DNA of 64,000 nucleotides from an uncultured Actinomycetota bacterium (GCA_963771345.1 CAVYTH010000018.1:7335-71334); one strand, 5' to 3'. Counted from the stretch's first letter, positions 22,300-34,030 are shown. The notes: generated by a model not told the origin, from the letters alone. Numbers and translations: made by a program.

Positions 22300-23419
22300 A
22301 TGAGCGACCAGACCGCCCTGAGGCGTTCCCCGCTGCACGACCGGCACCTCGCGCTGGGCGCGAAGATGGCCGACTTCGGCGGCTGGGAGATGCCGATCGA
22401 GTACCCCGGCGGCGGCGTCGTCAAGGAGCACACGGCCGTCCGGGAGGCGGTGGGGCTCTTCGACGTCAGCCACCTGGGCAAGGCCGTCGTGCGCGGGCCG
22501 GGCGCCGCGGAGTACGTCAACGCGACCCTGACCAACGACCTCGAACCGGGTCGGGCCGGGCAAGGCGCAGTACACGCTGTGCTGCGACGACGCGACCGGC
22601 GGCGTGGTCGACGACCTGATCGCCTACTACCGCGCCGACGACCAGGTCTTCCTGATCCCCAACGCCGCGAACACCGCGGAGGTGGTCCGCCGGCTGGCGG
22701 AGTCGGCGCCGGAGGGCGTCGAGGTCGTCGACCTGCACGAGCGGCACGGGGTGCTCGCCGTGCAGGGGCCGCGGAGCGGCGAGGTGCTCGACGCGATGGG
22801 GCTGCCGTCCGAGCCACGACTACATGTCCTTCGTCGCGCTCGACTGGCAGCGGCATGCCGGTCGTCGTGTGCCGCACCGGCTACACCGGCGAGCGCGGCT
22901 ACGAGCTGGTGCCGCGCTGGGAGGACACCGGCACGTTCTGGGACGCCGTGCTCGCAGCCGGCGAGCCGTTCGGCATCCGGCCGGCCGGGCTGGGCGCCCG
23001 CGACACGCTGCGGACCGAGATGGGCTACCCGCTGCACGGGCAGGACCTCTCGCTGGACATCACGCCGGTGCAGGCGCGCTGCGGCTGGGCGGTCGGCTGG
23101 AAGAAGCCGGCGTTCTGGGGCCGGGACGCGCTGCTCGCGGAGAAGGAGTCCGGCGCGCCGCGGCTGCTGTGGGGCCTGGAGGGCCTGGAGCGGGGCATCC
23201 CGCGGTCGCACATGGCGGTGTCGACGGCGGACGGCGCCGCGGTCGGTGAGGTCACCAGCGGGACGTTCTCGCCGACCCGGAAGATCGGCATCGCGCTGGC
23301 CCTGCTGGACCGCGGCGGTGTCCGAGGGCGACGAGGTGGTGGTCGACGTCCGCGGCCGGCCGGCCCGGTTCCGGGTCGTCAAGCCGCCGTTCGTCACCCC
23401 GTCGACGCGCGCGACATGA
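22300..23419 (+). CDS. gcvT: Glycine cleavage system T protein (frameshifted)
   Basis: [60 protein letters not shown]. Confidence 0.95.
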
Positions 23420-23955: not shown

Positions 23956-25893
23956 ACGCGAAGGTCGGCGACCGACCACCAGGACGAGGCGGTGGCAGTC
24001 TGGTCGATGCGCAGGTAGCGCGCTCGGGTGCGCGGGAGGTCCAGCACGGTGAGCTGGCCGGACCCGGCGACGGACCGTCGCCGGCCGCCAGGTGACGCCG
24101 TCGGTGCTGGTCGACAGGGCGACGCCGCGCGGGTAGTCGCCGAGGTCCGCGCCGGTGTCGAGGACGACCCGGCGTACGTCGCGCACCGAACCGAGGTCGA
24201 CCTGCAGGCGCTGACCCGGCTGCTGGGCCGCGCCGGTCGTCCACCGGGTGGTGGCGTCGTCGTCGACGACGTTCGCGGCGTCAGCGGACGCCGGGACCGA
24301 GGTGGCACTGCGCCGTGCAGGTCCAGCAGGCGGTAGCCGTCGTCCAGCGCCTTGCTCTTCGGCCAGACGAACGTCGCGAGCGAGCCGCCCGGCAGCGTGT
24401 AGTCGAACGACTGACCGCCCTGGGCGACCGCGAACGACCGCGGGTCGTCGTTCTCGTTGTGCACCACCAGGACCGTCGACCCGTCAGGGTTGCGGAACGC
24501 GACGTCCATCACCTGGCCGTTCCAGCCGGTGGTGCCGAACGACGTGCTGGCGATGCGGTGCGCGCCGGGCCGGACGAACCGCGCCAGGTGCCCGAGCGTG
24601 TAGTACTCCGCGTTGCGGGTGACCGTGTGCCCCGGGCCGACGGTGACGACGCCGGTGCAGGTGTCGCAGCCACCGTTGTGCGGGCCGCCGCTCGGGTCGA
24701 GCGCGAGGTTCCAGTTGACGACGGTCGAGCCCCAGTTGCGGGTGACTCCCAGCACCAGGTTGCGGCTGTGCCACTTCAGGGTGTCGGAGAACACCTGCGC
24801 CGGCGGGTCGGTCGGGCCGTGCGAGCCGGAGCACTCGGTGAACCAGAGCTCGGTGTCGGGGAACGCGTGGTGCAGCTTGGTCTGGTCGGCCGGCTCGCCG
24901 GCGTAGCAGTGGTACGCGATCCCGTCGAACCACTTCTTCTGCGGGGAGCGCAGCAGCCGGTAGGGGTAGTCGGTCTCGGGGTCCTCGCCGGGCGGGGTCG
25001 TGGCGATGTCGTTGGGGTGCTCGGACCAGTTGTGGTCGTAGCCGAGGATCAACGTGTCCAGCCGGGCGGCGTCGAAGGCCGCGCCGACGACGGCCGCCAG
25101 CTTCACCTGCTGCCACGCCGGCATGTCGGCGCCGGGGTAGCCGCTGGGGTTGCGGTTCTGCGGCTCGTTCTGCAGCGTCACGGCGTGCACCGGGACGCCG
25201 GCCTCGCGGTAGGCCTGCACGAACTTCACGAAGTAGCGGGCGTAGGCCCGGTAGATCTCCGGGTCGTCGATCAGCCGGCCGCCGATCAGCGAGCCGTTCG
25301 TCTTCATCCAGGCCGGCGGGCTCCACGGCGTGGCGACCACCGTGAGGTCGCGGTTGAGCCGCAGGGCCTGCCGCAGCAGCGGCAGGATCTGCTTCCGGTC
25401 GTGGGCGATGCTGAAGTGCTTCATCGCGTAGTCGGTCTGGCCGGCCGGTACGTCGTCGTACGTGTAGAAGTCGCCGGCCACGAAGTCCGAGGCGCCCATC
25501 GGCTGGCGCAGCACATTCAGGCTGTCGCCCTTGCGCGGGTCGAACAGGTCGGCCATCACGGCGTCGCGGGTGTGCGGTGGCAGCCGGTACAGGACCACGG
25601 CTGAGGAGTCGGTGATCGAGGCGCCGAAGCCGCGCATCGTCTGGTAGCGGCGGGACGGGTCGACCGTGATCGTCAGCTGGTCGGAGCCGCCGGGCCGGAA
25701 GGTCGCACCGGTCGCGGGAGCGAGGCGCTGGGTCCCGTCCGGCGTGGTGACCCAGACCTTCGCGGTCGGCGCCTTGTCCGCGGCGGCTGCGCGACTGGCC
25801 GGCGGCCGGGCCGCTGACGACCAGCCCGGCCAGGACGGCGGTGGCCAGCGCGGCGGTGAGAAGTGGGGCGGTGCGGCTACGGATCGAGAGCAC
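23946..25893 (-). CDS. Secreted GH30 glycoside hydrolase with C-terminal F5/8 (CBM32-like) domain (frameshifted)
   Basis: GFGASITDS, MGASDF, PWSPPAWMK, QNEP acid/base, YDHNW, WFTEC nucleophile, WWSVADLRV. Confidence 0.9.
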
Positions 25894-25963: not shown

Positions 25964-26805
25964 TCACCCGACGGCGGCTCGCAGCACGGGCACGGCGAGC
26001 AGCGCGCCGGTCCCGTCGTCGCCGCGCAGCCCGAGGTCCAGCACCGGCTCCAGCGACAGCCGGGCCAGCGCCAGCGAGTGCGCGGGGTCGGGGGACAGGT
26101 TCCCGGCCAGCCACCAGTCGGCGGCCCGGAAGGCCAGCCGGGCCGCGACGAGGGCGGCAGCGGCGGCGGCCGGACCGTCGAGCACGACCGGCGTACGGCG
26201 GGCAGCGGCCTGCAGCAGGACGCCGGTCGCGACCGCCAGGTCGCCGGTCCCCACGGTCGCCAGCAGGTCGACGTGGTCGGCCATCGTCGGGCGGCCCCGG
26301 CGCATCGTGTCCCTGGTCGCCGCGCAGGCCACCATCCAGGCCGCGTCGTCCTGGCCGGTGGCCGTCACCGCCGACGCGTCCGCCTTGGTGAGCAGCCCGA
26401 CGAGGCTGGCGACGGGCACGGCGAGGTCGGGGTCGGGCAGCGCGAGCACCAGCAGGTCGGCGCCGCCGTCGACCTCCTCGTCGGCCAGCGCCACGCCGGC
26501 GAGCACCGCGGCCAGCGCCTCGTCGCGGTTCCCGGTCGCCATCTCCCGCGTGCCGACGACCCGCAGGTCGACGCCGGTGTCGACGGCCACCGCACCGTCC
26601 GGGCCGGTGCGGTGTCGGCGAGCACCAGCAGCCGCGGCCGGGCCGGCGGCACTGCGGGCACCTGGCTCTGCGCACCCGCGAGCCAGACGGCGAGGTCGAC
26701 CAGCCGGCCACCGGTGCCGTCCGGGCCCAGCAGGTCGCGGGCCTCGCGGCGGGCGCCGTCGTCCGGCCGCCCGACGGCAGCAGCGAGCTCGTCCAGGTCG
26801 GTCAC
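25964..26805 (-). CDS. cobT: CobT-like (nicotinate-nucleotide-DMB phosphoribosyltransferase fold), degenerate; one frameshift
   Basis: GRLVDLAVWLAGAQ, GVALADEEVDGGADLL, AAARRTPVVLDG, LEPVLDLGLR.DGTGA; in the usual cobT position. Confidence 0.75.
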
Positions 26806-27648
26806 CGGGCCATCGTGCCGTGCGGCTCGACCGGCTCGAACGTCGCCACCGCCTCGAACTCCGCCCGGCGGGCGGCCCGTCGCAGGGCGAGCAGCACCGG
26901 GCGGGCGGCGATCGCCACCAGCGCGGCGGTCGTCAGCGCCCGCGGGATGTCGAAGCCCAGCGACGTGATCAGGGTGAACGCGATGAACCGGGCCAGGTTC
27001 TCGGTGAGCGGGGCGCCGGCGACGTACGAGATCTCGCTGTCCAGGCCGACGGTGAACGGCCAGAGCCACAGGTTCATCAGCAGGCCGTAGGCGAGCCCGG
27101 CGACCGCGCCGTACGCCGTCAGCAGCACCACCTCGGCCCGTCCGGTGGCCCGCGGCAGGCAGCCGGCGAGGAAGCCCACCCAGCCGGCGGCCAGCATCTG
27201 GAACGGCAGCCACGGGCCGACCCCGGCGGTGAGCAGCGCCGACGCGAACAGCGTCACCGCGCCGAGCACGAAGCCGAAGCCGCGTCCGAGCACCCGCCCG
27301 GCCAGCACCAGCAGGAAGAACACCGGCTCGAACCCGGCGACGCCGCCGCCGAGCGGGCGCAGCGCGGCGCCCACCGCCGCCAGCACGCCGAGCAGCGCGA
27401 CCGCCTTGGCGTCCATCCCGCCGTCGGCGATCTCGGCGAGGACGACCGCGAGCAGCAGCGGCAGCAGCAGCGACGAACAGCCAGGGCGCGTCGGACCGGC
27501 CGGCCAGGTCCGGAGCCCGGCTGCACGAACAGCGGCCAGCTGAACGCCAGCAGCCCGACCGCGCTGACCAGCGAGCAGGGCCAGCGACGGCGCGCGGCCG
27601 GATCCGCACCGCGCGGACCCGCGACGTCACCGCCGCCGAGACGCTCAT
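26802..27648 (-). CDS. ECF transporter S component (CbrT-like, predicted cobalamin)
   Basis: MDAKAVALLGVLAA, EPVFFLL, GPWLPFQM, SLGFDIPRA; multi-TM. Confidence 0.85.
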
Positions 27649-29257
27649 CCGGCCTTCAGCGAGGCAGCGACCTCGGCCACGGTCAGCCACGGCAGCGGCG
27701 CGAGCACCTTGGCGACCTGCGGGGCGAACGCGGGGGAGGAGACGACCACGTCGCGGGACGGCCCGTCGCTGACGACCTCGCCGTCGGCGAGCACGACCGT
27801 CCGGTCGGCGACCGTGGCGGCGAGCTCGACGTCGTGGGTGGCGAGCACCACGGCGTGCCCGTCGGCCGCGAGCTCGCGCAGCACCCGACCAGCGCGGCCT
27901 TGCCGGGGTAGTCGAGGCCGCGGGTCGGCTCGTCGAGCAGCACGACGGGCGGCCGGCCGGCGAGGACGACGGCCAGCGCGAGCGCGAGCCGCTGCCCCTC
28001 GGACAGGTCGCGCGGGTGCTGGTCCGGGGTCGCGCCGGTGACCAGCCCGGCGAACACCGCGTAGGCCGTCCCGGCCGGTACGCCGGCGTCCCGGTCGGCC
28101 TCGGCGCACTCCTGCCCGACGGTGTCGGCGTACAGCAGGTCGCCCGGCTCCTGCGGCACCATGCCGACCCGCCGGACCAGCTCGCGCGACGGCAGCGTCG
28201 CCGGGTCCTCGCCGGCCACCCGCACCGTGCCGGCGTCCGGACTGCGCAGGCCGACCAGCGCCGACAGCAGGGTCGACTTGCCCGCGCCGTTGCGGCCCAT
28301 CAGGGCGACGACCTCGCCGGCGCGCAGCTGCAGGTCGACGCCGCGCAGCGCCGGCCGGCCGTCGTACCGCACGATCGGCGCCGCGCACCTCGGCCACCAG
28401 GTCGCCGGTCGCCGGCGGCGGCGAGCACCGGGACGGGCGCCGCGCCGAGCCGCGCGGCCAGCTCGCCGGCCCGCCGGCGGGCGTCGCGCACCGACAGCGG
28501 CAGCGGCGACCAGCCGGCCAGCCGGCCGAGCTCGACCACCGGCGGCGCCACCGGCGCGGTCGCCAGCACGTCGGCCGGTGCGCCGACCACCAGCGGGCGG
28601 CCGCCGCCGGGGACGAGCACCAGCCGGTCGGCGTACTGCACGACGCGCTCGAGCCGGTGCTCGGCCATCAGCACCGTCATGCCGAGGTCGTGCACCAGCC
28701 GCTGCAGCAGCGGCGAGCACCTCCTCGGCGGCCGACGGGTCGAGCGCCGAGGTCGGCTCGTCGAGCACGAGCACCCGCGGGTGCGGGGTGAGCACCGAGC
28801 CGATCGCGACCCGCTGCTGCTGGCCGGCCGAGAGCGTCACCAGCGGCCGGTCCCGCTGCGCGGCCAGGCCGAGCAGGTCGAGCGTCTCCTCGACCCGGCG
28901 GCGCATCACCTCGGGCGGCACGCCGAGCGACTCCATGCCGTAGGCGAGCTCCTCCTCGACCGTGTCGGTGACGAAGCCGGCCAGCGGGTCCTGCCCGACG
29001 TAGCCGACGACGTCGGCGAGGTCGCGCGGCCGGTGCTCGCGGGTGTCGCGGCCGGCGACGGTCACCCGGCCGGACAGCAGCCCGCCGGTGAAGTGCGGCA
29101 CCAGCCCGTTGACGGCGCGCAGCAGGGTCGACTTGCCGGAGCCGGTGCGCCCGACGACCAGGACCAGCTCGCCCTCGGGGACGTGCAGGTCGACGCCGGA
29201 CAGCACGGGTGCGTCGCTGCCGGTGTAGCGGACCCCGACGTGCTCGAAGGGGATCAC
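27645..29257 (-). CDS. ECF transporter duplicated ATPase (frameshifted)
   Basis: Two Walker A motifs (GRTGSGKST, GRNGAGKST), LSAGQQQR/LSEGQR, two LDEPT. Confidence 0.92.
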
Positions 29258-30416
29258 ACGACCTCCTCGACCCGGGCCGGTGCCGGCGCGCTCTCGGGCT
29301 CGACAGCGTCGACGTGGCGTTCCGGTGGCGGCGCGACCCAGGCGGGCAGCAGGGCGACCAGCAGGGCGAGAGTCGGTACGACGGGCAGCGTCGGCGCGAC
29401 CAGCGGCGAGGTCGACGGCGCGCAGCGCACGCCGGGTCGAGCGCGGCGCCGATCAGCACGCCCAGCGCCGCGACCAGCCCGCTGCAGGACACGACCCACT
29501 CCTGGGCGCGCCACAGGTCCGGCCGGTAGCGGCTGCGCGTCGACCGGCGGCTGCCGAGGGTGAGACCAGCAGCGGCGACGGCGGCACCGACGACGAGCAA
29601 CGGCAGCCCGAGAGCCGTCGGCGACGTCGCGTCGATCAGGCCGTAGAGGCCGACGCAGACGCCGAGCAGCCCGACCAGGGTGAGCGCCCCGGAGCGCCGG
29701 CGCGCGCCGGGCTCGGCGGCGCCGCGACCGTAGCCGCGCGCGTCCATCGCCGCGGCGAGGTCGACCGAGCGCTCCAGCGCGCCCTCGAGCACCGGCATCG
29801 CGACGCCGCGCAACCCGCGCATCCCGGTGTGCACGCGGCCGCGCAGCCGGCGGGCGGCGCGCACCCGGGTGACGCCCTCGACCAGCTGCGGCGCGAAGGT
29901 CAGCGCCACGACGACGGCGACGCCGACCTCGTACAGCGCGCCCGGCACGGCACGCAGCAGCCGCCGCGGGTTGGCCAGTGCGTTCGCGGCGCCGACGCAG
30001 GCGAGCATGGTGGCGAGCTGCAGCCCGGCGTACACCGCGCCGAGCAGTCCCTCGAGGGTGACGTCGCCGCCGAGCCGCACACCCGCCGCCCAGTCGGGCA
30101 GCGTGACCTCCGGCAGGTGCACCAGGACGTGGCCCGGCACGGGGGCGCCGACCACGATCGCGAACACCACCCGGATCGCGACGACGACCAGGCCCATCCG
30201 CAGGTAGAAGCCGTACGCGCGGGCCCACGGCGCGTCGGTCCGGCGCGCGGCGACGACGTAGCCGGCGACGGCGAGGATCAGCCCGAGCAGCAGCGGGTTC
30301 GTGGTGCGGCTCGCGGCCGTCGCCAGCCCGGTGGCCCACAGCCACCAGGCGCCGGGGTGCAGCGGCGCAGGTGGCGCAGGCCGGCAGGTGCGAGTCGCCG
30401 GCAGGTGCCACGTCAC
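29254..30416 (-). CDS. ECF transporter T component (CbiQ-like), frameshifted
   Basis: LHPGAWWLWA, AARRLRG, LAAAMDARGYG. Confidence 0.9.
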
Positions 30417-31273
30417 GGCGAGCCGCCGGTACGCCGGGAGCGGGCCAGCGCCGCGCCGCCCAGCACGGCGACCAGGACGGTGCCGATCGCGAGCCCGGCC
30501 AGCGGTGGCCCGCCGCCTTCGTCGCCCTCGGCCGCCGCGTTCGACGTCGACGGCGCCGGTGCGGTCGTGGCCGGGTCGGTCGTCGGCTCGGTGCTCGGCT
30601 CGGGATCGCTCGAGGTGGCTGACGTGGGCGGCTTCGACGTCGCCGACGTGGCCGACGTCTTCGACGTACTCGGCTTCGTCGACGTGCTCGCCGGGGCCGG
30701 GTTGGTCAGCTTCTCGGACTGGGTCGGGTCGGGTCTCGGCTCCGGCTCGGCGGTCCGGGTCGGTGCGGGGGTGGCCTTCGTCGCCTGCGGGCAGAGGGTG
30801 CCGAACGCGATGTCCGGCGGCTCCTGCCGGCCGCCCTCCTGCCACACCCAGGCCTCGATGGCGCCGGGCGCCGGGTCGTGGCTGCCCGCGCCCTCGGTGG
30901 CGTAGACCCACCGGCTGGATCCGGGCGCCCGCCACCAGTAGGACCAGTAGGTGTCCGCGGAGTTGCGCGAGCACTCGGGGAGCCCGTCGAGCTGGCAGAT
31001 CTGGCCGGGCTGGCGCGGCACGAACGCGTAGCTGACGCCGGCCTTGGTCAGCGCCTCGAGGCCGCTGTCGGGGTCGCCCTCCGCGCAGCCGGTGCGCAGG
31101 CCACCGCCGGCCAGCCGGCCGTCGACGATGACGCCGACGCACGGCTTGCTGGCCGCCGACGCCGGTGCGGCCGGTCCGAGGAGCGCAAGCCCGACCACTC
31201 CTGCGCCCCCGAGCAGCGCAGGAGCGAGCAGGGCCGAGACGAACCGTCGGACCGTCCGCACCGGAGTCAGCAC
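30413..31273 (-). CDS. Exported Cys-containing DUF4430/SCO2322-like protein with Thr/Ser/Pro stalk and C-terminal TM anchor
   Basis: Signal peptide ...APASA; VIVD...C...ICQLDGLP.C...YWSYWW...WVYATEGAG..PAPGAIEAW; TM LAGLAIGTVLVAVLGGAAL followed by RSRR. Confidence 0.8.
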   Translation of the reverse strand: MLTPVRTVRRFVSALLAPALLGGAGVVGLALLGPAAPASAASKPCVGVIVDGRLAGGGLRTGCAEGDPDSGLEALTKAGVSYAFVPRQPGQICQLDGLPECSRNSADTYWSYWWRAPGSSRWVYATEGAGSHDPAPGAIEAWVWQEGGRQEPPDIAFGTLCPQATKATPAPTRTAEPEPRPDPTQSEKLTNPAPASTSTKPSTSKTSATSATSKPPTSATSSDPEPSTEPTTDPATTAPAPSTSNAAAEGDEGGGPPLAGLAIGTVLVAVLGGAALARSRRTGGSP

Positions 31274-31277
31274 CCTG

Positions 31278-32371
31278 CTAGCAGGCCAGCTTGGGCAGAC
31301 CGCGGCTTGCGCCGTCCCGGCTGATGTCGGCCAGGGTGGCCTGCGCCAGCGCGGGGATGGCCTGGCTGGTGGCGCGGACCGAGTCGCCCTCGCCGCTCCG
31401 GGCGTACCGGACCATGCCGCGGTTGGCGGCCTTGCCGGCGCAGCCGACCTGCAGGTCGCGCAGGAAGCCGCGGGCGTCGGCGGCGGCGTTGTCCCGGCCG
31501 ACGCGCGGTGAGTGCCTGCGCGGCGAGCGCCGTGCTGTTGGCGTTGCGGGCACCGTTGCCGGTGAACGACCCGTTGCCGTGCTGCTGCCGCTTGAGCCAG
31601 CGACCGGCGTCGGCTGCCGCGGCCAGGGCGGCCTTGCCGCCGACCGTCGTCAGGGCCTGCACGGCGAAGCCGGTGGCGTCGACGGTGGCCACGCAGGGCG
31701 TGGCGCCGAAGGTCTCCGGGAAGCCGCCGTTGCCGCACTGCTGCTCGACCAGGAACGACACCGCAGCGTGCGAGGCGCCACGGTTGGTCGCCCGCTCCAG
31801 CCCGATCAGGGCCAGCGACTGCGAGAACGCGTTGCTGAAGTCGCCGTACTGCGAGACGTCGGCGAACCGGCCCTTGTCGCGCCGCGGCACAGGACTGGGC
31901 CTTGCCGCACTCGAGGGCGCGCAGCCCCGCCACCAGGTTCTTGCGCGGCCCGCCGCCGAACGCGGTGGCGTCGGCGTTCTGCGCGGCGGCGACCAGCACG
32001 AGCTTGGCGTAGGCGCCGGCGTAGTGCTCCTTCGAGTCGCTGCCGCCGGTGTAGTCGAGCACGTTGTGGCGCAGCGCGCCGGTGGCCTGCCGGGCCGCCT
32101 TGCGGCCGACCTTCGCGGAGTCCAGGGCGAGGACGACGTCGGCGGTGAGCCCGTAGTCCGGGAACGACTGGCCGCCGAACGAGGTCGTCATCAGGTGGCT
32201 GTCGTGGTCGAGCTGACGGCCGAGCCAGCCGGCGCCGGCGTCGGCCCGGTTGCGGGTCTCGGCCGCGTCAGCGGTGCCGGGGGTGGCGAGGATGACGGCC
32301 GGGGCCGTCAGGAGCGCCGCGACGGCAAGCAGGTGCTTGCGCAGTCGCGGGTGGGACTTGGTGTGGAGCAC
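31278..32371 (-). CDS. Secreted prenyltransferase/squalene-oxidase-repeat (alpha/alpha barrel) protein (frameshifted)
   Basis: Signal peptide ...TADA; repeats FLVEQQCGNGGF, WLKRQQHGNGSF, NANSTALAAQAL, RATSQAIPAL; GAAAGGA RBS. Confidence 0.82.
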
Positions 32372-32544
32372 GGGTGACGTCCTTTCACGGGAGCGATCCG
32401 CGACGGTCCCCGGGCGAGTCCGACGGCCGCACACGACAACGCCCCCGACGCGACAAGTCGCGCGGGGGGCGGAAGGTGCGGACGCTGGTGCGTCCGGGCT
32501 CCGCCCCGCATACCTCGACGGAATGAGTGGAGCCGCTCACGTCC

Positions 32545-32690
32545 ACGCAGGTGCTCCGACTCGCCGCACGGCCCGGGGACACCGGGTGCGGCCTACGGTT
32601 GCGGGTCAGTGCCGGATTCCGACCGGTCTTCCCCTGCATGAACGTGTATGCAGTTGTGGCGCCGGGTCTCCCCGGCATGCGGAGCACACC
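32545..32690 (-). ncRNA. Cobalamin (B12) riboswitch
   Basis: Minus strand GCAGGGGAAGACCGGTCGGAATCCGGCACTGACCCGCAACCGTAGG ... GAGTCGGAGCACCTGC (B12 box), upstream of the ECF operon; 5' boundary approximate. Confidence 0.92.
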
Positions 32691-32746
32691 ACGCGCGGTA
32701 GGTTCGCGTCAAAAGCAGTGTCCGGTTCGCGAAGGAGGTCCCGACG

Positions 32747-32950
32747 GTGACGTGGTCCTGGCGGATGGAGTCCGGCGACGGCTCCACGATCGAGGGCGTG
32801 ACCGGCGAGCGGTTCCCCAGCCAGGCCGACGCCGAGTCGTGGGTCGGGGAGGCCTGGCAGGACCTGCTCGGGCAGGGCGTCGACCAGGTCAGCCTGCTCG
32901 AGGGCGACCGGGTCGTCTACGGGCCGATGAGCCTGCACCCGGCCGAGTAG
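32747..32950 (+). CDS. Conserved actinobacterial small protein
   Basis: AGGAGG RBS; W.WR.E...FPSQADAESWVGE.W..L...GV..VSL.EG...VYGPMSL. Confidence 0.8.
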   Translation: MTWSWRMESGDGSTIEGVTGERFPSQADAESWVGEAWQDLLGQGVDQVSLLEGDRVVYGPMSLHPAE

Positions 32951-33019
32951 CGCGCAGCCCCGGCGACTTGGCGACACCCGGCGGCAGCGCCGGCGTACGG
33001 CGAACCTAGGCTCGTGGCC

Positions 33020-34030
33020 ATGGACTTCCGACACCTCGGCCGCAGCGGCCTCAAGATCTCCGAGATCACCTACGGCAACTGGCTCACCCACGGCTCCCAG
33101 GTGGAGAACGAGGTGGCGACCCAGTGCGTGCGCGCTGCCCTCGACGCCGGGATCTCGACGTTCGACACCGCCGACGTCTACGCCAACACCAAGGCCGAGA
33201 CCGTGCTGGGTGCGGCCCTGAAGGGCGAGCGCCGCGAGTCGCTGGAGATCTTCACCAAGGTCTACTGGCCGACCGGACCCGGCGGGAAGAACGACGTCGG
33301 CCTGTCCCGCAAGCACATCATGGAGTCGATCAACGGGTCGCTGACCCGGCTGCAGACCGACTACGTCGACCTCTACCAGGCGCACCGGTTCGACCACGAG
33401 ACGCCGCTCGAGGAGACGATGCAGGCCTTCGCCGACGTCGTCCGCGCCGGCAAGGCGCTGTACATCGGCGTCAGCGAGTGGACCGCGGCGCAGATCCGGG
33501 CCGGCCACGCGCTGGCCGAGGAGCTCGGTGTGCACCTCGTGTCGTCGCAGCCGCAGTACTCCATGCTCTGGCGCGTCATCGAGGCCGAGGTCGTGCCGAC
33601 CAGCCGCGAGCTGGGGATCGGGCAGATCGTCTGGTCGCCGATCGCGCAGGGCGTGCTCACCGGCAAGTACAAGCCCGGCGAGGCACCGCCGGCCGGCTCG
33701 CGCGCCACCGACGAGAAGGGTGGCGCCGACATGATCAAGCGGTTCATGAACGACGACATCCTCGGCCGGGTGCAGAAGCTGTCGCCGGTCGCCGACGAGC
33801 TCGGCCTGACGATGGCGCAGCTCGCGGTGGCCTGGGTGCTGCAGAACGACAACGTCTCGGCGGCGATCGTCGGCGCCTCGCGGCCCGAGCAGGTCGTCGA
33901 GAACGTCAAGGCCGCCGGGGTGCAGATCCCGGCCGAGCTGATGAAGCGGATCGACGACGTCCTCGGCGACACCGTGGAGCGCGACCCCGGCAAGACCACG
34001 GCGAACGCACCGGCGTCCCGCCCGGCCTGA
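33020..34030 (+). CDS. Aldo/keto reductase (Kv-beta-like)
   Basis: FDTADVY, IFTKV, LQTDYVDLYQAH, YIGVSEW, WSPIAQG; intact. Confidence 0.95.
   Translation: MDFRHLGRSGLKISEITYGNWLTHGSQVENEVATQCVRAALDAGISTFDTADVYANTKAETVLGAALKGERRESLEIFTKVYWPTGPGGKNDVGLSRKHIMESINGSLTRLQTDYVDLYQAHRFDHETPLEETMQAFADVVRAGKALYIGVSEWTAAQIRAGHALAEELGVHLVSSQPQYSMLWRVIEAEVVPTSRELGIGQIVWSPIAQGVLTGKYKPGEAPPAGSRATDEKGGADMIKRFMNDDILGRVQKLSPVADELGLTMAQLAVAWVLQNDNVSAAIVGASRPEQVVENVKAAGVQIPAELMKRIDDVLGDTVERDPGKTTANAPASRPA

Follow-up and report, generated by a model that had tools for sequence, protein, structure and literature searches.

An actinobacterial operon behind a predicted cobalamin riboswitch pairs an exported toroid protein with a transcobalamin beta-like protein and an energy-coupling factor transporter

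Layout of the operon and its frame breaks

A 64,000-nucleotide stretch of DNA from an uncultured Actinomycetota bacterium (GCA_963771345.1, CAVYTH010000018.1:7335-71334; referred to here as the window, with positions counted from its first letter) contains a predicted operon of six genes behind a leader that resembles a cobalamin riboswitch (Table 1). The first two genes, which we call A and B, encode exported proteins, and they are followed by genes for the components that make up an energy-coupling factor (ECF) transporter and by a CobT-like gene. The initial annotation of this DNA, made from its sequence, had described A and B as looking like the alpha and beta halves of a split bacterial transcobalamin. 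All of the elements that it claimed were found on the minus strand at the places it gave, and its motifs TVDATGFAVQAL, QHGNGSF...NANSTALAAQAL, ATSQAIPAL, and ICQLDG...YWSYWW...GAG...P.PG were all recovered in translations of the window.

Table 1. Features of the operon, its leader, and the frame breaks in gene A (aa, amino acids; ORF, open reading frame; G023, a relative of the window's genome)
Feature	Position in window	Strand	Evidence or remark
All operon features		-	Tightly packed; order leader, A, B, EcfT, EcfA-A', EcfS, CobT-like
Predicted AdoCbl (adenosylcobalamin)-type cobalamin riboswitch aptamer	32494..32659	-	RF01482 match below cut-off, conservation, covariation
G+C-rich hairpin between aptamer and start codon	32440..32471	-	Conserved; possible expression platform
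Gene A: exported (alpha/alpha)6 toroid, ~363 aa, no anchor, three frames here	31278..32371	-	tblastn, orthologue model; start GTG at 32371, stop TAG at 31278
Gene A, first frame break (one base too many)	31879..31886	-	Frame switch; bridging contigs
Gene A, second frame break (one base too many, near 31503)	31500..31505	-	Frame switch; bridging contigs
Gene B: signal peptide, SLBB/DUF4430-fold domain, Thr/Ser/Pro stalk, C-terminal membrane anchor; 286 aa, intact	30413..31273	-	ORF, domain model
EcfT (CbiQ-like transmembrane component), at least one frame break	29254..30416	-	GTGA overlap with B; 394-aa G023 orthologue
Fused EcfA-A' double ATPase, at least two frame breaks	27645..29257	-	ATPase motifs in several frames; 536-aa G023 orthologue
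EcfS, unnamed family, N-terminal part frame-broken	26802..27648	-	PF12822, E 2e-8; 279-aa G023 orthologue
CobT-like (DBI_PRT) gene, overlaps ecfS end, one frame break	25964..26805	-	PF02277, E 3.3e-41 on 3' part

Gene B starts four bases past the end of gene A, the sequence GTGA at 30413 to 30416 joins the stop codon of gene B to the GTG start of EcfT, and the EcfT stop overlaps the EcfA-A' start at 29254 to 29257; this tight packing and the 4-base overlaps support an operon. In the relative G023, each of these six genes is an uninterrupted ORF (363, 282, 394, 536, 279, and 289 aa, respectively), and the overlaps among ecfAA', ecfS, and the CobT-like gene are the same as in the window.

The operon is predicted to encode an ECF transporter set consisting of a T component, two ATPase domains, and an S component. 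The EcfA-A' orthologue of G023, a single ORF, matches ECF_ATPase_1/2. G023 EcfT matches no NCBIfam model and was named by homology across loci; a CbiQ Pfam match was obtained on one B-family member that is fused to EcfT. For the EcfS orthologue of G023, neither NCBIfam models nor PDB sequences (E up to 1) gave a match. The CobT-like orthologue of G023 (L013:4620-5489, minus strand) is shortened, covering profile positions ~120 to 330 only, and scores below the NCBIfam cut-offs.

Gene A is read in three frames in the window (-1, -2, and -3 by tblastn) versus one frame in nine relatives. With the G023 orthologues as tblastn queries, EcfT was found in two frames and EcfA-A' and EcfS in three each, and the CobT-like gene shows one frame break against G023. 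That five of the six operon genes (A, EcfT, EcfAA', EcfS, and CobT-like) occupy more than one frame relative to intact G023 could indicate a decaying pseudogene cluster in which the frame breaks are real. However, three further genes of this contig, gcvT, aroK, and an aminopeptidase gene (window 22300 to 23416 and neighbors; G000:C18:29634-31267) are broken likewise, into two to four frames each against their G023 orthologues, and the genome that contains the window (G000) is 52.5% complete despite 3.7 Mb in 27 contigs. We also compared positions 30413 to 32690 with independent contigs from four public metagenome runs, which are 90 to 99% alike. Both records bridging position 31503 have one base fewer (X1, depth 2.1 of a summed 11.4; X5, 4.76 of 4.76), the remaining X1 contigs ending or beginning at 31501/31503 with no bridging. 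Both records bridging the first break likewise have one base fewer, at 31879 (X5, 6.81 of 6.81) or 31881 (X2, 3.45 of 3.45). As contigs no more alike than this may stem from other strains, they are supporting rather than final evidence. Since neighboring genes are also broken, the nine relatives are intact, and every bridging contig lacks the extra base, the two frame breaks in gene A are, judged by these comparisons, almost certainly sequencing or assembly errors, and a pseudogene cluster is very unlikely. The frameshifts that the initial annotation had wanted repaired are accounted for in this way; intact orthologues were therefore used for the analyses below. With indel errors throughout the assembly, any "pseudogene" in the window is to be distrusted.

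The two exported proteins

The product of gene B is built as the initial annotation had described it, with a signal peptide, a Cys-containing domain, a Thr/Ser stalk, and a transmembrane anchor in one ORF. Its basic and hydrophobic N terminus is followed by a domain of ~125 aa with several invariant Cys residues and the block TYWSYW...W.Y..GA...P.PG..E.W, and its C terminus consists of a low-complexity Thr/Ser/Pro stalk, a hydrophobic segment, and then Arg residues. Among 150 B-family members, 127 have a C-terminal hydrophobic stretch. At the N terminus (window 31240 to 31273, minus strand), a conserved Arg-Arg precedes the hydrophobic segment (consensus ..RR..A.LLAPALLGGAG), which, by eye, might be a twin-arginine signal.

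The domain of B was modeled with a pLDDT (predicted local distance difference test) of 87.4 and a pTM (predicted template modeling score) of 0.81. In a Foldseek search of PDB, all 16 rows listed among the first 18 ranks were transcobalamin, intrinsic factor, haptocorrin, or 3u7z, with modest E-values (8.6e-3 to 0.13). VIA returned 15 entries at Z scores of 9.4 to 10.5, 14 of them transcobalamin, intrinsic factor, or haptocorrin and the other the DUF4430-type 3u7z, whereas the next unrelated fold scored 4.9; these 15 entries aligned over 95 to 100 residues at root mean square deviations (rmsd) of 2.5 to 4.6 A. For the animal carriers transcobalamin, intrinsic factor, and haptocorrin (PDB 2bb5, 2pmv, and 4kki), the values were Z 9.4 to 10.4, rmsd 2.8 to 4.6 A, 95 to 100 residues, and 10 to 18% identity. 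Both programs agree with the transcobalamin beta-domain/DUF4430 fold proposed for B in the initial annotation. In the model, a helix (residues 34 to 40) is followed by two strands (45 to 47 and 55 to 58) that form a beta-hairpin and then by the core strand (71 to 78); a beta-hairpin right after the helix is what sets the transcobalamin-like SLBB clade apart, according to Burroughs et al. 2007 (PMC1796856).

At the sequence level the link is weaker. No Pfam model matches the gene B protein of the window, and the sole specific NCBIfam match of its orthologue is a weak one to SCO2322_fam (22.5 bits; cut-off, 85). A profile of the 150-sequence B family aligned by hhalign with a reference set of 16 Pfam-positive DUF4430 sequences from the phylum at a probability of 78% (E 1.8e-5, 90 columns). 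Searched against PDB sequences, the B-family profile gave only a match of the low-complexity stalk, to an archaeal S-layer glycoprotein (E 0.095). Because of the fold matches and the hairpin after the helix, we regard B, as modeled, as a divergent member of the transcobalamin-like SLBB clade that is missed by current Pfam models.

The protein encoded by gene A has a basic and hydrophobic, signal-like N terminus and lacks a C-terminal hydrophobic stretch, as expected from its earlier description as secreted without an anchor. Its G023 orthologue was modeled with a pLDDT of 91.9 as 15 helices that form a toroid behind a disordered signal segment. The best Foldseek matches of this model were class II terpene cyclases (E 8.5e-8). 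VIA likewise placed class II terpene cyclases first (Z 25 to 26, rmsd 2.7 to 3.0 A over 263 to 272 residues, 19 to 22% identity), followed by cellobiose epimerases, GH76 mannanases, and other toroids (Z 21 to 24). Transcobalamin chains, whose alpha domain is of the same fold class, were found by Foldseek at E 4.8e-6 to 2e-5, with template modeling (TM) scores of 0.50 to 0.55 and 13 to 15% identity; the best of them ranked 15th, behind the terpene cyclases (E 4.8e-6, TM 0.53), and the better-ranked chains mostly had TM scores of 0.54 to 0.59, close to those of transcobalamin. All 54 gene A family members match SQHop_cyclase_C and Prenyltrans in Pfam. The model, VIA, and Pfam therefore agree with the initial annotation that A is an alpha6/alpha6 toroid of the prenyltransferase/squalene-cyclase type. 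By this modeling, A has the right kind of fold for the alpha half of a transcobalamin, and the fold alone is not specific to transcobalamin: among the matches listed, A does not appear closer to it than to many other toroids, and the specifically transcobalamin-like character that had been read into A was not apparent.

These matches raise the alternative that A is a working terpene cyclase or prenyltransferase next to ECF genes by coincidence. Squalene-hopene cyclase and drimenyl diphosphate synthase are the proteins that A matches best in structure and sequence, and the gene A profile finds squalene-hopene cyclase among PDB sequences at E 2.4e-13. Public names of A relatives are [quoted passage not shown] or "terpene cyclase/mutase family protein," and an ESM Atlas look-up with A returned prenyltransferase/squalene-oxidase-repeat clusters only. 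The DxDD motif supplies the catalytic acid of class II terpene cyclases. The DVDDTA of squalene-hopene cyclase aligns with SVDATG in the gene A family, so that one Asp is kept and DxDD is not; we presume that SVDATG...AL resembles the signature of the animal transcobalamin family. This replacement and the signal segment argue against cyclase activity. Moreover, the signal-like N terminus is accompanied by conserved Cys residues, a combination typical of exported proteins, all Pfam matches of the A-family protein P0001 are below the curated cut-offs, and A is linked to B, ECF genes, and riboswitches across families (see below). An enzyme in a chance neighborhood is thus barely credible as an explanation of A. 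The sole specific NCBIfam match of the intact A orthologue is SCO2321_fam, at 117.1 bits against a cut-off of 300. SCO2321 and SCO2322, families of neighboring genes, are the only specific NCBIfam matches of A and B, respectively, and their names carry no function.

Leader RNA, conservation of the cassette, and B12 physiology

The candidate aptamer in the leader was detected as a full-length match to RF01482 (model positions 1 to 149) with 43 bits against a cut-off of 50 and E 2.1e-6, the latter referring to a permissive scan of 901 bases (32200 to 33100). At the Rfam gathering score, nothing was found in window 20000 to 42000, nor in 10 loci comprising the window's own and those of nine relatives. 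Of 11 related loci, 6 have a sub-threshold Rfam match at the corresponding position, and the homologous operons of other families have riboswitch matches above the Rfam cut-off. The leader is 76 to 96% identical across all of the related loci compared, which number 17 without that of the window and include some regions counted twice. An alignment of 13 leader sequences has a long invariant core, and 8 of its 57 predicted pairs show compensatory changes on both sides that keep the pairing. Because of this identity, the invariant core, and the compensatory pairs, we regard the leader as a real element, predicted from its sequence to be a cobalamin riboswitch variant that Rfam models under-score. 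The hairpin between the aptamer and the start codon (alignment columns 235 to 272) pairs in all 11 of the 13 sequences that span it and is a possible expression platform. A consensus scan of the leader found no canonical promoter or terminator.

The family of the B domain is widespread. With E limited to 0.001, its profile retrieved 3,448 representative proteins from a set of 1.84 billion, and the family occurs in 170 of 401 sampled genomes of the class (77 of 175 genera), a tally that includes three genomes flagged as unpublished (G054, G038, and G383). The genomes that carry it range from very small to large, Streptomyces-sized ones.

Linkage was surveyed in 20 actinobacterial loci of other families. 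In 18 of them, B has an A-family ORF as its neighbor or fusion partner; the exceptions are L061, with a weak match upstream only, and L064, with none. EcfT, EcfAA', and EcfS lie directly downstream in all 20. A cobalamin riboswitch match is found directly upstream and on the operon strand in 17 loci, 12 of these matches being at or above the Rfam cut-off and 5 below it (E 5e-4 to 5e-3); in L056 it is on the opposite strand, and in L066 and L070 none was found. As the 20 loci are related by descent, these counts show conservation and not independent events. The tie of the A-B pair to ECF genes and cobalamin riboswitches, proposed in the initial annotation for this locus, accordingly extends well beyond this genome, and a location of the homologues mostly away from such riboswitches and ECF genes, which would have spoken against the proposal, was not seen in the 20 distant loci.

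Some of these loci deviate in their arrangement. In the SCO2321/SCO2322-type loci L064 to L070 (e.g., L064:6701-7279, minus strand), the A and B profile matches come in swapped order, with the C-terminal half first, which suggests circularly permuted or differently registered versions of A and B; the second-half B matches in these loci are weak (E 0.2 to 16). Loci L065 to L070 of this type also have ECF genes downstream, and the scores of A and B are far below the SCO2321 and SCO2322 family cut-offs. Locus L056 (G195:C1:3645300-3659700) lies in a Streptomyces-sized genome; its genes run B-EcfT-EcfAA'-EcfS-A, and next comes a distinct protein with a Pfam DUF4430 match (E 4.7e-8), so that B and a DUF4430-positive protein, and hence both SLBB types, occur in one cluster. 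In locus L054 (G237:C1:669600-686300), two A-B pairs in succession and a single ECF module have four cobalamin riboswitch matches above the Rfam cut-off around them, all in a span of 16.7 kb.

We examined B12 physiology in five relatives that are 92 to 98% complete. Of the synthesis genes sought, CbiC, CobS, and CbiB were each found in none of the five, and CobQ in none over its cut-off. B12 users are present throughout, with MetH in all five (four over the cut-off), acyl-CoA mutases in all five, and NrdJ in all five, as is a PduO-type adenosyltransferase. Judging from this gene content, the relatives apparently use B12 and cannot make it or assemble its nucleotide loop, and they would therefore have to import complete cobamides.

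A possible surface corrinoid trap

On balance, we consider it probable that the operon specifies a surface corrinoid trap, composed of A and B, that feeds an ECF importer and is repressed by cobalamin in a B12-dependent lineage. As the riboswitch class suggests, the leader RNA would bind cobalamin, turning the operon off when B12 is plentiful and on when it is scarce. B would stand on its flexible Thr/Ser/Pro stalk at the membrane surface, held by the C-terminal anchor, and A would be released free into the wall space. Because the toroid and the SLBB domain of transcobalamin hold one B12 between them, we propose by analogy that the toroid face of A and the SLBB domain of B jointly clamp a corrinoid on the cell surface and hand it on to EcfS. 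EcfT and the fused EcfA-A', working with their own S component, which belongs to an uncharacterized family, would then drive it across the membrane, as the gene context suggests. The identity of the ligand, the contact between A and B, and the hand-over to EcfS are what we infer here. A complex prediction of A (residues 36 to 363) with the B domain (residues 4 to 130), run with no controls, scored 0.01 against a mark of 0.32, which speaks neither for nor against binding.

A fuller version of this proposal is put forward more tentatively, as one of somewhat less than even standing. According to it, A and B would be a non-covalent, two-gene transcobalamin that clamps a corrinoid at the surface for a dedicated EcfS, the transporter would be a binding-protein-dependent ECF importer through which a large part of the Actinomycetes mainly take up B12, and the orphan CobT-like protein would serve in the cytoplasm as a receiver or remodeling factor and not as a biosynthetic enzyme.

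In the window and in nine close relatives, A and B are covalently separate, the products of two genes, and the survey of split and fused homologues shows that fused forms exist elsewhere. Protein P0249 consists of a signal, A, two B domains, and cell-wall-binding repeats (CWB2), in the alpha-then-beta order of transcobalamin, and ORFs in L062 and L063 combine B, two toroids (A-A), and a C-terminal anchor in one frame. P0378 (543 aa) joins a B domain, a membrane anchor, and EcfT in one predicted protein; this may be a genuine fusion, which would place B at the transporter, or it may have arisen because the stop codon in the GTGA overlap was lost. No long proteins (495 to 2,000 aa) with a B domain were found by a word-based search, which is weak evidence, since the exhaustive profile search did find fusions.

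The fused forms also bear on a narrower model of corrinoid import, in which only B binds the ligand and A acts otherwise outside the cell, by stripping carriers, modifying corrinoids, or aiding passage through the wall. Such a division of labor would fit the isolated beta domain of human transcobalamin with bound cyanocobalamin (PDB 5np4), proteins P0252 and P0310 with two B domains and no A, the riboswitch-B-ECF arrangement without A in L064 (a 1.4-Mb genome), and the fact that A is closest to enzymes. However, A adjoins or is fused to B in nearly all of the distant loci and shares one polypeptide with it in P0249, L062, and L063, its SVDATG in place of DVDDTA keeps one Asp, and transcobalamin uses just such an alpha/alpha toroid for B12 binding (PMC1796856). 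We regard binding by B alone as rather unlikely and keep to the joint clamp of A and B.

Much of this design is in print. Bacterial transcobalamin-like SLBB proteins, which are exported or anchored and in many cases carry a toroid fused at one end or the other, were described by Burroughs et al. 2007 (PMC1796856) as encoded with CbiO- and CbiQ-like genes in hosts usually without B12 synthesis, and scavenging of B12 or a precursor was predicted for them. The present operon is like those systems in combining an exported, anchored SLBB protein of the transcobalamin clade with a toroid, a CbiO-like ATPase, and CbiQ-like membrane genes. Fusions that carry the toroid at either terminus, together with paralogous SLBB pairs, are the forms reported there; here the toroid and the SLBB domain are separate genes. 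[quoted passage not shown] Further differences from the systems described there are an SLBB domain too divergent for Pfam DUF4430, the C-terminal membrane anchor, the predicted cobalamin riboswitch, and the CobT-like gene (PMC1796856, same part).

A second precedent is lsa1836-1840 of Lactobacillus sakei (Verplaetse et al. 2019, bioRxiv 10.1101/864751), a five-gene operon of EcfS, EcfA-A', EcfT, and two exported proteins. Its order differs, the S component coming first in the numbering, in contrast to A-B-T-AA'-S here. Lsa1839 and Lsa1840 are reported to resemble transcobalamin's beta and alpha domains, and by this description we liken them to B and A, respectively; the same hand-over to the S component was proposed. 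As the parts of that preprint available to us present it, the L. sakei heterodimer is a homology model with docking and no experiment. The initial annotation was right that such operons had been predicted by comparative genomics, but this caveat on precedent was too weak: the very same arrangement had been predicted in 2007 (PMC1796856), and the split pair of L. sakei was described in 2019.

The L. sakei operon is tied to heme: its deletion lowered heme accumulation, and complementation restored it (10.1101/864751). The present system might correspondingly import heme or another tetrapyrrole. This is at odds with the cobalamin riboswitch matches directly upstream, on the same strand, in most of the distant loci and in this lineage, with relatives that depend on B12 while lacking the synthesis genes sought, and with a CobT homologue inside the operon. 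Heme as the cargo is therefore improbable, and a corrinoid remains our preferred ligand.

Several observations weigh against the corrinoid trap as proposed. The one studied operon of this design, in the part of the L. sakei report available to us (10.1101/864751), affects heme and not B12 uptake. The structures nearest to A are class II terpene cyclases (Z ~26) and then unrelated toroid enzymes (Z 21 to 24), and transcobalamin is not among the matches listed by VIA (the best 50, Z 25.9 to 21.5). Pfam Cobalamin_bind (PF01122) matches 4 of 54 A members, at best with E 0.03, and does not match P0001. Pfam DUF4430 (PF14478) matches none of 49 close B members at E up to 10, none of 150 in the wider family at E up to 0.01, and nothing in G000 at E up to 10, and hhalign with the narrow B family gives a probability of 7.6% (E 0.0046). 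The riboswitch is below the Rfam cut-off throughout this lineage. The CobT-like gene is the only DBI_PRT copy in each of the five relatives, all of which are without a detected CobS. CobS and NrdJ were not found in G000 itself, which is uninformative at its level of completeness, so the argument from auxotrophy rests on the relatives. Taken together, the folds, linkage, and fusions expected from the initial annotation held up, and a specific closeness of A to transcobalamin was not apparent.

Besides the division into two polypeptides, the proposed delivery to an ECF S component, and not to an endocytic receptor, distinguishes the system from the animal carriers. Among ECF transporters, a functional parallel is ECF-CbrT, reportedly a vitamin B12 transporter of Lactobacillus delbrueckii (described by Santos and colleagues in 2018). 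It would likewise be an ECF-type cobalamin importer; to our knowledge, it has no extracytoplasmic binding proteins. The EcfS encoded here, as noted above, matches no PDB sequence. According to the general description of ECF transporters, they operate without soluble binding proteins (10.1101/864751), and a search of the accessible literature, excluding subscription journals and supplements, yielded no biochemical demonstration that such a bacterial pair binds B12.

The idea of capture by a toroid and an SLBB protein ahead of ECF genes is thus already published, by Burroughs et al. in 2007 and for L. sakei in 2019. What is new here is the actinobacterial, riboswitch-led, split form with an SLBB domain missed by Pfam, the measured frequency and constancy of the cassette, and its link to a B12-dependent lineage without the synthesis genes sought. 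A toroid and SLBB pair ahead of an ECF module, predicted since 2007, contrasts with the usual view of ECF transporters. The cassette is common in Actinomycetes and almost always preceded by a cobalamin riboswitch match, making it a candidate B12 acquisition route of many soil and freshwater actinobacteria. Its natural split and fused forms provide material for studying how the two halves of a transcobalamin-type clamp cooperate.

Two neighbors of the operon complete the picture of the locus. Between the CobT-like gene and the aroK/gcvT block (window ~24000 to 25700, minus strand) lies a secreted glycoside-hydrolase-like gene, its family assigned by eye, that is frame-broken in its C-terminal part and has no counterpart at the same place in G023. 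On the other side, a 67-aa ORF (window 32747 to 32950, plus strand) is divergent from the riboswitch, is kept in G023 (L013:11326-11607), and is followed by an aldo/keto-reductase-like gene.

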